From an uncultured Acidobacteriota bacterium (GTDB taxonomy: Bacteria > Acidobacteriota > Vicinamibacteria > Vicinamibacterales > CAVVIG01): a stretch of DNA of 64,000 nt. The notes under the pieces are model-generated. The model ran no database searches. It was not told the DNA's origin and saw only the letters and a list, made by a program, of their open reading frames with translations. Where the stretch lies: positions 1,082,215-1,146,214 of the forward strand of contig CAWBXO010000001.1 of the NCBI GenBank assembly GCA_963792785.1, given 5' to 3'. A program made the translations under genes and the position numbers. Shown in pieces: positions 18,317 to 19,792 of the stretch (the first letter of the stretch is position 1; each line of letters opens with the position of its first letter).

Positions 18317-19792
18317 CTACTGTTGCTGCTGTTGCTGTTGCTGTTGCTGTTGCTGACTCTGGGTCGCCTCCGCCCCGGACCGGCCTACGACGCTGCACAG
18401 TGGGCAGCCGATGAAATGGTCCTGGTCCGGATGCTGCGCACGCCGCTTCATCATCTCCTCGTCGAACTGGGCGTCCGTCATGCTCACCTTGTTGCCCAAC
18501 TCGAGGAACATGTTCGCCACCGAGCGGTTACCAGAGCCCTCCCAGTTGCGCGGATCGGGCACGTTCTTGTTCCCCGGGGAGTTGTCCATATAGCCGATCA
18601 TGTGCAGGATCGTCCCCTTCGGCAGCAGCGGCGCCGCGTCGTCCGCGTAGGTGTAGCCACGCACCCAGTTGTGGTCGTATCCCACACAGTTCAACGTCTC
18701 AATCAGGTCGCCCCAGATCGCTTCGAGGCACATCCGCACGCCCGGCGCATGGAGATGCGGCTCGTACGAGAGCAGCTTCGTGTTCTCCTTCAGGATGTGG
18801 TACGCGTGCAACTGCGTCGTCGCGTCGGCGTCGAGGTCGACATCCTGGCCTCGGCCGAGACCTTCGCGTGCCTGTTTGTACTTCGGCACGAATCCTTTGG
18901 GAGCGAACTTGAATCCGATTTCGAGATGCGCGGTCGTGTCTCGGCCATTCGAGTGCAAGTGCGCGGAGTCGGACACGATGTACGAATTCGCCCGCAGGAG
19001 ACGCGCGGCATCGGCTCCGAAGACATCGGGGTTCCTGCCGACCTCGTGAACCGGCCACCCCGTCACCGTCTCATCGCGGAAAGCCGTCGACGTGTCGCCG
19101 GGCGTCGCCTCCGGCGTCTGACGTGTGCTGTAGATCAAGTGATGAAACACGTACCGCCCGCCGACGGTCTGTCGATCGGTGCCGGCCCTGGGAACATCGT
19201 TCACCTCTTTGACCTCGACCGCGGTCACATAGCGATCCTCGGTCAGCCCGGTCGGGGTGCGCGGAATCTCGCCCCACCAGTCCGGCGCGTCTGCTTTGAC
19301 CGTAATGTCGGGGAGCTTCACGATCAGATCCGGCGTGCCGATGGTCCAGACGCTCGCGTCCGCCCACTGGCGCGGCGGCGGCATGTCAGCAGGATCGCCA
19401 CGGGGCGCGCCGCTGTCGACCCACTCGGCGATCCTGGCGATCTCCTCGTCGCTCAGTGAGGGATCGTCCTTGAAACTCTGGATGCCGATATCTTTCTCCA
19501 TGTACCACGGCGGCATGACGCCGGCGTGCGGTCCAATGCCGGTGCGCTGCTTGATCGCGCGCGCCCACGGTCGGACTTCCTCGTACGCCGTCAGGGACAT
19601 TGGGGCGCCACCATCGGCACGGTGGCAGTTTTCGCAGCTGCGCTGCAGAATGGGAGCGATATCCTTCGTGTAGGTCACCCGCGAGGCAGGCGGGGCCGAC
19701 TGCGCCCTGGTCGTCGCCGACGTGTACAGAGCCACCGCCCCGGTGACGACCGCGACACAGACCACGCTCCGGCCGATTGATCGAACCGCCAT
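18317..19792 (-). CDS. haem-c (PSCyt1-like) / PHM-DBH-like copper monooxygenase fusion protein, poly-Gln C-terminus (cassette B)
   Basis: 491 aa with RBS AAGGAG and a signal peptide. Motifs: CENCH, MPPWY, LSDEEIARIAEWVDSGAP, FVFHHLIYS, DSAHLHSNG, YEPHLHAPG, NRSVANMF. Ends in Q x12, encoded by (CAG/CAA)12 at 18320..18355. Confidence 0.85.
   Translation of the reverse strand: MAVRSIGRSVVCVAVVTGAVALYTSATTRAQSAPPASRVTYTKDIAPILQRSCENCHRADGGAPMSLTAYEEVRPWARAIKQRTGIGPHAGVMPPWYMEKDIGIQSFKDDPSLSDEEIARIAEWVDSGAPRGDPADMPPPRQWADASVWTIGTPDLIVKLPDITVKADAPDWWGEIPRTPTGLTEDRYVTAVEVKEVNDVPRAGTDRQTVGGRYVFHHLIYSTRQTPEATPGDTSTAFRDETVTGWPVHEVGRNPDVFGADAARLLRANSYIVSDSAHLHSNGRDTTAHLEIGFKFAPKGFVPKYKQAREGLGRGQDVDLDADATTQLHAYHILKENTKLLSYEPHLHAPGVRMCLEAIWGDLIETLNCVGYDHNWVRGYTYADDAAPLLPKGTILHMIGYMDNSPGNKNVPDPRNWEGSGNRSVANMFLELGNKVSMTDAQFDEEMMKRRAQHPDQDHFIGCPLCSVVGRSGAEATQSQQQQQQQQQQQQ

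Follow-up and report, generated by a model that had tools for sequence, protein, structure and literature searches.

Homopolymeric glutamine tracts are held to be essentially eukaryotic, and the low-complexity tails of bacterial proteins are usually dismissed as noise. Eukaryotic polyglutamine (polyQ) tracts are encoded by mixed CAG/CAA trinucleotide repeats, show length polymorphism caused by slippage and are stabilized by CAA interruptions; they are internal, usually longer than the tails described here, and belong to nuclear or cytoplasmic regulators. In bacteria, disordered Gln-rich C-terminal tails of variable length are found in the XVIPCD of Xanthomonadales type IV secretion system (T4SS) effectors (X-Tfes), where the change of Gln to Ala had little effect and the role of the Gln 'remains enigmatic' (PMC8740702, PMC10432156). 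The locus described here lies in a window, the whole stretch of DNA analysed, of 64 kb (69.6% GC) from contig CAWBXO010000001.1 of an uncultured Acidobacteriota bacterium of the Vicinamibacterales, and encodes three paralogous exported enzymes, A, B and C, that terminate in 6, 12 and 8 consecutive Gln residues. These tails resemble the eukaryotic tracts in their mixed codons, slippage and interruptions, but they stand at the very C-terminus of a bacterial metalloenzyme that is exported, comprise 2-12 residues in the family and occur in a 70% GC genome. With XVIPCD they share a disordered, variable-length, Gln-rich C-terminal tail. However, XVIPCD tails are Gln-rich without being homopolymers, they end in six hydrophobic or basic residues and not in Gln, they follow a conserved domain of alpha-alpha-beta-beta-beta order with the motifs GLxRIDHV and FAVQGxxDPAHxRAHV, and they are carried by cytoplasmic T4SS substrates. 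Assignment to XVIPCD was ruled out, as both motifs are absent from the paralogues, which carry N-terminal Sec signal peptides and the covalent-haem motif CXXCH.

The tails were located by scanning both strands for (CAA/CAG) runs with a regular expression. Paralogue A (10557..11918, minus strand; 453 amino acids) ends in CAG CAG CAG CAA CAG CAG at 10560..10577, followed by TAG; paralogue B (18317..19792, minus strand; an open reading frame (ORF) of 491 amino acids) in (CAG CAA)x4 CAG CAG CAA CAG at 18320..18355, followed by TAG; and paralogue C (59200..60666, minus strand, with the ORF extending to 60714; 488 amino acids from the ATG, 504 in the full ORF) in CAG CAA CAG CAG CAG CAA CAA CAG at 59203..59226, followed by TAA. 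The coordinates and codons, all on the minus strand, agree with the original prediction that Q6, Q12 and Q8 runs abut the stop codons of three paralogues; each is an unbroken Gln run read from tandem CAG/CAA codons, as expected of a polyQ homorepeat. They are the sole runs of at least five such codons on either strand of the window, which contains exactly three members of the family, all of them tailed. Tandem Repeats Finder detected a period-6 array of 4.8 copies with 100% match at 18327-18355, in the B tail, and arrays of period 3, 6, 9 and 12 across the three tail sites. A (CAA)4 stretch at 39787 was discarded: it lies in a large gene of outer-membrane type, whose true frame turns it into Asn codons.

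The sequences preceding the tails, ARKARLSQDS-QQQQQQ in A, GCPLCSVVGRSGAEATQS-Q12 in B (with TQS before the run) and GCPLCNVVAKEEMKAEQSTGQN-Q8 in C (with GQN before it), had been described as different, which holds in part. They are not wholly unrelated: Ser or Thr is usually found just before the run, often with basic residues shortly upstream, and B and C, which are 67% identical, share a GCPLC motif located 13 and 17 residues, respectively, ahead of the Gln run. Paralogue A, 41% identical to B, belongs to a subfamily that lacks GCPLC. Since A-type proteins are Q-tailed in spite of that, the tail is independent of the motif.

Orthologues were surveyed in two samples, the 120 closest homologues of the B/C type (65-95% identity; source names Vicinamibacterales or Acidobacteria) and the 120 closest of the A type (71-100% identity). 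In the B/C type 90/120 proteins ended in QQ and 98/120 had at least three Gln among the last six residues, with runs of up to Q11. In the A type 112/120 ended in QQ, with lengths distributed narrowly (Q5 in 41, Q6 in 39 and Q7 in 16). Tails are general among the orthologues, so that the objection that orthologues might lack them does not hold. When gene-like ORFs were chosen by codon-position GC in all the high-GC related loci and the window, terminal QQ was present in 97 of 132 family ORFs and in none of 356 others (Fisher p 5e-73). C-terminal Gln tails had been expected to be rare, and locally they are; within the sampled loci the same figure rules out a proteome-wide habit of the lineage. 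Chance and assembly artefact were likewise ruled out, as the same tails recur across hundreds of independent metagenome or metagenome-assembled genome (MAG) assemblies. In a neighbour-joining tree built from the conserved core, 43 of the 45 leaves of the main A clade and 48 of the 52 of the high-GC B clade were Q-tailed. Tail type tracks the genome and not the paralogue: where a MAG has 2-4 copies, every copy carries the Q tail, with one exception, the JACPZW01 MAG has three degenerate tails (SQNPDPQ, SRNPQ and TTQDQR), and Pseudohongiella genomes have an acidic tail on both copies. The reality of the tail, its translation and its restriction to one family and one lineage are thus firmly established.

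Outside the Q-tailed branch the C-termini take other forms. Pseudohongiella and related Gammaproteobacteria (45-60% GC; loci L044-L079) keep GCPLC and have acidic ends such as TAASDD, SASDDD and DSAEE, with a conserved end motif [ST]A[ST]DD(D), QSDD or AEE, and hence the extreme C-terminus appears to be constrained in the Pseudohongiella lineage too. Two Gemmatimonadota copies carry a long acidic Gly/Ser tail, a Thermoanaerobaculia copy ends in ATGGR, and an A-type sister clade (18 leaves, 64-68% identical to A) ends in SGTH, SGTR or RGTK. Distant representatives, clustered at 50% identity, are mixed: P0257 ends in TTQHQQQ, P0263 in TNQQQQQ and P0310 in SDQQ, and many others do not end in Gln. 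One B-type clade ends in GAPQQ or GGPQQ, with just two Gln codons and no repeat, and yet keeps QQ. Several of the related records (L011, L013, L033, L037 and L080) are MAGs titled 'Bifidobacterium'; their contigs have 65-68% GC and genes typical of Vicinamibacterales-like Acidobacteriota, and they are probably mislabelled.

The length of the tail is much less conserved than its presence. Within clusters of at least 90% identity B-type tails ranged over Q3-Q8, Q4-Q7 and Q1-Q10, while A-type tails were mostly Q5 or Q6. The closest comparison is L161, 95% identical to B, whose tail reads CAG CAA CAG CAG CAA CAG TAG (Q6); the window B tail, which at Q12 is the longest of the survey, is this tail with three additional CAGCAA units. 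The statement that the tail itself is conserved but varies in length therefore stands, with copy number polymorphic between close relatives (Q3-Q8 at 90% identity or more, and the hexanucleotide expansion relative to L161), and it is firmly established that 3- and 6-nt slippage governs the length. In this respect the tails resemble the simple-sequence contingency loci of bacteria, which are also short coding tandem repeats differing in copy number between close relatives. Phase variation was nevertheless rejected. The units, of 3 or 6 nt, are in frame and adjoin the stop codon, so the frame is never shifted and expression is never switched; what varies is the length of the tail alone, and this variation appears to be suppressed, not promoted, by the interruptions.

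Rapid length turnover would also be expected if the tail were a neutral microsatellite, that is, a CAG/CAA repeat held by slippage-mutation balance in a dispensable disordered 3' end and encoding functionless Gln. The predicted disorder of the tail would fit this explanation, as would the frequent impurity of B-type tails (QNQNQQ, QDQQQ) and the absence or degeneration of the tail in several clades, with at least 14 gains or losses on the tree. The codons, however, make it unlikely. Outside the tails the Gln codons of the window comprise 467 CAG and 37 CAA (7%), against 9 CAA among the 26 tail codons (35%; binomial p 6e-5). Over all the high-GC loci the share of CAA rises from 9.1% in gene bodies to 22.4% in tails (Fisher p 3e-12), and among 36 distinct A-type orthologues (mean 79% identity) it amounts to 0-8% at conserved Gln columns of the body and 14-42% at those of the tail. 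CAA is present, centrally, in 48 of the 49 distinct tails of at least Q5, the longest pure CAG run of Q5-Q7 tails is almost always three or fewer, and the summed longest pure-CAG run is 138, compared with 172 +/- 5.8 in within-tail shuffles (0/5000 reach 138) and with 246 expected from the body codon frequencies. That the codon pattern of the tails is non-random is firmly established.

Taken over 47 distinct A-type genes with Q tails, the final five codons comprise 171 CAG and 45 CAA but only 7 one-step replacements (to His, Pro, Glu or Arg). Slippage homogenization would purge CAA and replacements alike, and therefore the excess of synonymous interruptions points to purifying selection on the amino acid, while neutral decay would yield mostly replacements. 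Neutrality would also leave unexplained the retention of QQ in the repeat-free clades, the tight A-type length (Q5-Q7 in 96/120) among proteins of 71-83% identity, the presence of the tail on paralogues only about 40% identical, and its confinement to one family, given that CAG dominates the Gln codons everywhere (467 CAG in the genes of the window). That Gln identity would be under purifying selection, with CAA interruptions acting to damp slippage, is well supported by these codon comparisons. The original prediction of a functional but slippage-prone tail can be kept for the slippage of its length and for its conservation, with codon evidence that points to selection on Gln at the protein level; the specific tag roles that went with it are unsupported, as described below.

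The enzymes that carry the tail form a large family: at least 7,375 significant homologues were found with B as query and at least 8,000 with A, and in a library of representatives at 50% identity 11,047 proteins matched with E no higher than 0.001. Paralogue B consists of a Sec-type signal peptide, as found on each of the three paralogues, a c-type cytochrome, a PHM/DBH-like two-copper monooxygenase, a C-terminal helix, GCPLC and the disordered tail. The CXXCH haem-attachment site (C53, C56 and H57 in B numbering, in an N-terminal helical domain) is invariant, although matches to Pfam Cytochrome_CBB3 are weak (17-21 bits against a 27-bit cut-off). The monooxygenase assignment comes from an AlphaFold model of B, built on an alignment of 54 sequences (mean pLDDT 75), with which Foldseek retrieved human DBH (4zel, E 3.3e-8) as top match and many rat PHM entries (1sdw, 1phm and others), with E of 3e-8 to 1e-6 over these matches and a probability of 1.00 for all. 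Six putative copper ligands, H217, H218, H278, H346, H348 and M428, are invariant in the 54 sequences, at a spacing close to that of the CuH and CuM ligands of PHM, which we take to be residues 107/108/172/242/244/314. Sequence models did not detect the relationship: the paralogues had no match to Pfam Cu2_monooxygen or Cu2_monoox_C at E up to 0.01, nor in NCBIfam, and no PHM or DBH entry was found in a profile search of PDB sequences. As judged from the model, the kinship to PHM/DBH is visible by fold only. The earlier label 'cytochrome/Cu-monooxygenase-like' is justified because fold match and ligand pattern coincide, though no sequence model supports it. The likeness to these copper type II ascorbate-dependent monooxygenases thus lies in the two-domain beta-sandwich and the invariant His-His...His / His-x-His...Met pattern with PHM-like spacing. 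The differences are that the present enzymes fall below Pfam thresholds, are bacterial and periplasmic, are fused at the N-terminus to a c-type cytochrome, which replaces the ascorbate or b561 electron donor, and are accompanied by the gene of an Ig-like partner.

The GCPLC motif, a CxxC with no His after it, is located just past the last helix and ahead of the variable tail (codons at 18374-18385 in B and in the 59248-59262 region in C). It is invariant in all the B/C-type members, whether from Acidobacteriota, Gammaproteobacteria, Gemmatimonadota or Thermoanaerobaculia, and A-type members do not have it. It might form a disulfide or bind Cu(I), and is reminiscent of what we take to be the C-terminal inter-subunit cysteines of DBH. 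In the model of B the CPLC block has a pLDDT of about 80, and residues 472-491 fall below 50.

A disordered end next to a PHM-like cleft brings up a further explanation, namely that the C-terminus folds back between the two domains as a tethered pseudo-substrate, gating or protecting the copper site until substrate or partner arrives. The fold, the six invariant ligand positions and the roughly 20 disordered residues past the last ordered element of B would be compatible with it. PHM does act on the C-termini of peptides, but its substrates end in Gly and not Gln, and the position equivalent to PHM Arg240, presumably the residue that holds the carboxylate of the substrate, is occupied in these enzymes by Glu or Gln, near H346. 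A-type tails are moreover much shorter, and this purely speculative arrangement is the most improbable of those considered.

The explanation put forward here, tentatively, is that the tail caps the C-terminus with disordered, hydrophilic sequence that is maintained by selection, slippage determining how long it is. The Gln run would provide the periplasmic cytochrome c/PHM-like copper monooxygenase with an uncharged, strongly hydrophilic, disordered extension, and selection would keep it as Gln in the Vicinamibacterales-type branch of the family within the Acidobacteriota. Replication slippage by steps of 3 or 6 nt would alter the length of the imperfect CAG/CAA repeat with the frame intact, and the synonymous CAA in the middle of the run would hold pure CAG stretches at about three units, thereby damping further slippage. 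At the protein level the tail would keep the extreme C-terminus, past the last helix and in the B/C type past the CxxC, polar and solvated. Non-polar C-termini are the targets of Tsp/Prc-type proteases, and a polar end might be unattractive to periplasmic proteases that read them, or might be a source of weak polar contacts; other lineages would fill the same need with acidic or basic tails. Such a protective or solubilizing role is speculative. A generic cap is favoured because each lineage has a short polar tail, whether of Gln, Asp/Glu or basic residues, and because residues 472-491 of B are modelled as disordered.

Several points weigh against this hydrophilic cap. The codon counts were made without phylogenetic correction, the frequent pattern CAG CAG CAA CAG CAG CAG is possibly shared by descent, and survivorship could contribute to the abundance of CAA, since pure CAG runs would change fast and be seen less often. 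Fitch parsimony gave 14 changes on the tree and an ambiguous root state. If the role were simply one of solubility or protection from proteases, it would not be obvious why Gln tails are confined to one family, nor why one type of tail prevails across the paralogues of a genome. This family restriction, together with the concordance of tails within genomes, is a hint of a lineage-specific factor that recognizes them.

Accordingly phrased, the alternative is that a terminal [ST]-Qn-COOH constitutes a specific tag, bound or modified by such a factor. It might serve in docking to the Ig-like partner or to an electron donor, in polar-zipper oligomerization next to the C-terminal helix and the CxxC, in transglutaminase-type cross-linking to the envelope, or as a cleavable pro-peptide tied to the assembly of the metal sites. 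The C-terminal helices and cysteines of human DBH mediate oligomerization, a precedent that would suit it. So would the strict family restriction (0/356 other ORFs with a QQ end), the single tail type per genome and the joint degeneration in the three paralogues of one MAG, the terminal QQ retained where no repeat exists, and the Ser/Thr usual before the run with basic residues often near; the conserved end A-S-D-D of Pseudohongiella suggests in addition that the extreme C-terminus matters family-wide. Yet lengths of 2 to 12 among close relatives are unusual for a precise recognition motif, and other phyla do without Gln altogether. The acidic and other polar tails of those phyla are accounted for by a generic hydrophilic terminus no less well than by a specific tag, which we consider rather unlikely.

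The sorting signal, anchoring signal or transglutaminase handle named in the original prediction found no support either in the protein or in its surroundings. Sortase, exosortase and rhombosortase signals (LPXTG, PEP-CTERM, GlyGly-CTERM) and the C-terminal domain of type IX secretion substrates are, like the Gln tail, C-terminal extensions of exported proteins. The former, however, combine a signature motif, a transmembrane helix and a basic cluster, and the latter is a folded domain of roughly 80 residues, and the Gln tail is neither. The last 60 residues of the paralogues contain no hydrophobic run longer than four residues (longest 3-4) and no LPXTG or PEP motif, which rules out a signal of the sortase, exosortase or rhombosortase type. 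Searches of the last 40-54 residues against NCBIfam and Pfam at E up to 10 gave no significant match; the best hits below cut-off, CxxC_VVA0879 (E 0.031) and DUF2946 (E 0.78), do not model sorting signals. Near the three window loci and the related loci L161 and L162 there is no conserved peptidase or protease, sortase-like or transglutaminase gene, and hence no conserved candidate to recognize or process a tag. In its strongest form the idea would make [Ser/Thr]-Gln(n)-COOH a new type of C-terminal signal, devoid of a transmembrane segment, that is read in diderms by a periplasmic factor specific to Vicinamibacterales. This is quite improbable; if true, it would explain the same tail type per genome and the joint decay of tails in some lineages, and the factor might, for example, cross-link Gln to the envelope, dock the Ig-like partner, or remove the tail as a pro-peptide during the assembly of the haem and copper sites.

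Selection could also act on the nucleic acid instead of the protein. The CA-rich, G-poor tract would then be an unstructured mRNA element, such as a site of ribosome standby or of coupling to the partner gene, or one bound by a protein or a small RNA, with Gln as a by-product. The CAR tract is indeed predicted to be unpaired in the transcripts of A, B and C, CAA enrichment lowers the G content, and in B and its closest relatives the start codon of the partner gene is 7-16 nt past the stop. This proximity is found only there. In A and C the partner starts about 100 nt downstream (about 70-130 nt in A, C and many other Q-tailed loci), beyond a strong hairpin: one with a 14-bp stem and T-rich tail, terminator-like, at 10484..10516 (minus strand, z -3.9) between the A stop and the partner start, and another with a 17-bp stem at 59154..59191 (minus strand, z -3.3) in the same position after C. 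The B operon lacks a hairpin of such stability between the enzyme and partner genes. The hairpins of A and C may set the ratio of enzyme to partner expression. An enhancer or standby site for the ribosome-binding site of the partner was rejected as a general role, as spacings run from 0 to about 130 nt regardless of the tail and hairpins intervene at A and C. Furthermore, the tract always lies within the ORF, in the Gln frame and abutting the stop codon exactly, clades whose tails comprise just two Gln codons still end in QQ, and no Rfam family matched anywhere in the window. A constraint on RNA or DNA is therefore very improbable.

The partner genes, all on the minus strand, follow the enzymes. 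That of B (17304..18305) encodes a secreted protein of about 333 amino acids with a predicted tandem Ig-like beta-sandwich and has a GTG start 11 nt past the B stop; that of A (9475..10455) encodes an FEGWG motif; and C is followed by a first partner gene (58081..59094) and, downstream, by a second, tandem gene of partner type (57058..58077), which brings the number in the window to four. Of the 169 related loci, which come from several phyla, 118 encode downstream of the enzyme a secreted partner of about 330-370 amino acids with an [FY]EGW motif. The partner has no sequence match in Pfam, NCBIfam or PDB; its AlphaFold model is poor (pLDDT 63), and yielded only generic Ig-like fold matches, with TM about 0.2. 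The operon of monooxygenase and partner is present three times in 64 kb (9475-11918, 17304-19792 and 57058-60714), with the partner doubled at C, and in related MAGs it is often tandemly duplicated (e.g. L005, L008 and L011-L015). These operons constitute a large, uncharacterised, multi-copy periplasmic redox system.

Public records contain most of this set. A collection of 15 billion proteins holds, on the same public contig, proteins 100% identical to paralogue A (P0121) and to the B partner (P0522), as well as P0043, of 488 amino acids, whose last 45 residues match C exactly. In contrast, the exact B protein was not in that collection with a Q6, Q8, Q10, Q12 or Q14 tail, and gene B may have been called differently or left uncalled in the source record.

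The genes around the three window loci include those of a DAHP synthase, a DHDPS-like protein, PGA_cap, RmuC, CN_hydrolase and FG-GAP proteins, DUF5916, a TAXI-type binding protein and a histidine kinase, and none is shared among the neighbours of the three loci or of L161/L162. Directly upstream of B, on the same strand, lies a carbon-nitrogen hydrolase of the amidase/nitrilase family (19938-20900). This hydrolase lacks a signal peptide and is missing from the neighbourhoods of L161 and L162, which makes a link to the Gln tail unlikely. Intergenic tandem arrays with units of 7-8 nt are found at gene ends at 16573-16745, 19887-19943, 9423-9481 and 15296-15377; their units are AGTCGTC/TAGTCGC in about 24 copies (with higher-order periods of 22 and 72 nt), TCCCCAGC in 7 copies, GTTCCTCA in 7.5 copies and GAAACTGG/TCCTCAGT in 4 copies. 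Two of these arrays flank the A and B operons.

Full-text searches of the literature returned, apart from the XVIPCD precedent, no description of the enzyme family or of bacterial C-terminal polyQ tails, and a conserved C-terminal polyQ tail on exported bacterial enzymes, a repeat-encoded low-complexity tail in kind, appears to be undescribed. Hundreds of members of a single family of exported enzymes have kept the tail as Gln, with signs in its DNA of buffering against slippage. It offers a clean natural system in which to follow short polyQ outside eukaryotes and selection on a repeat whose length drifts. Its importance would rise substantially if a factor that recognizes or modifies it exists. 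Moreover, the tail marks a large, abundant and uncharacterised family, present in multiple copies in soil Acidobacteriota and in marine Pseudohongiella, whose C-termini evolve lineage by lineage.

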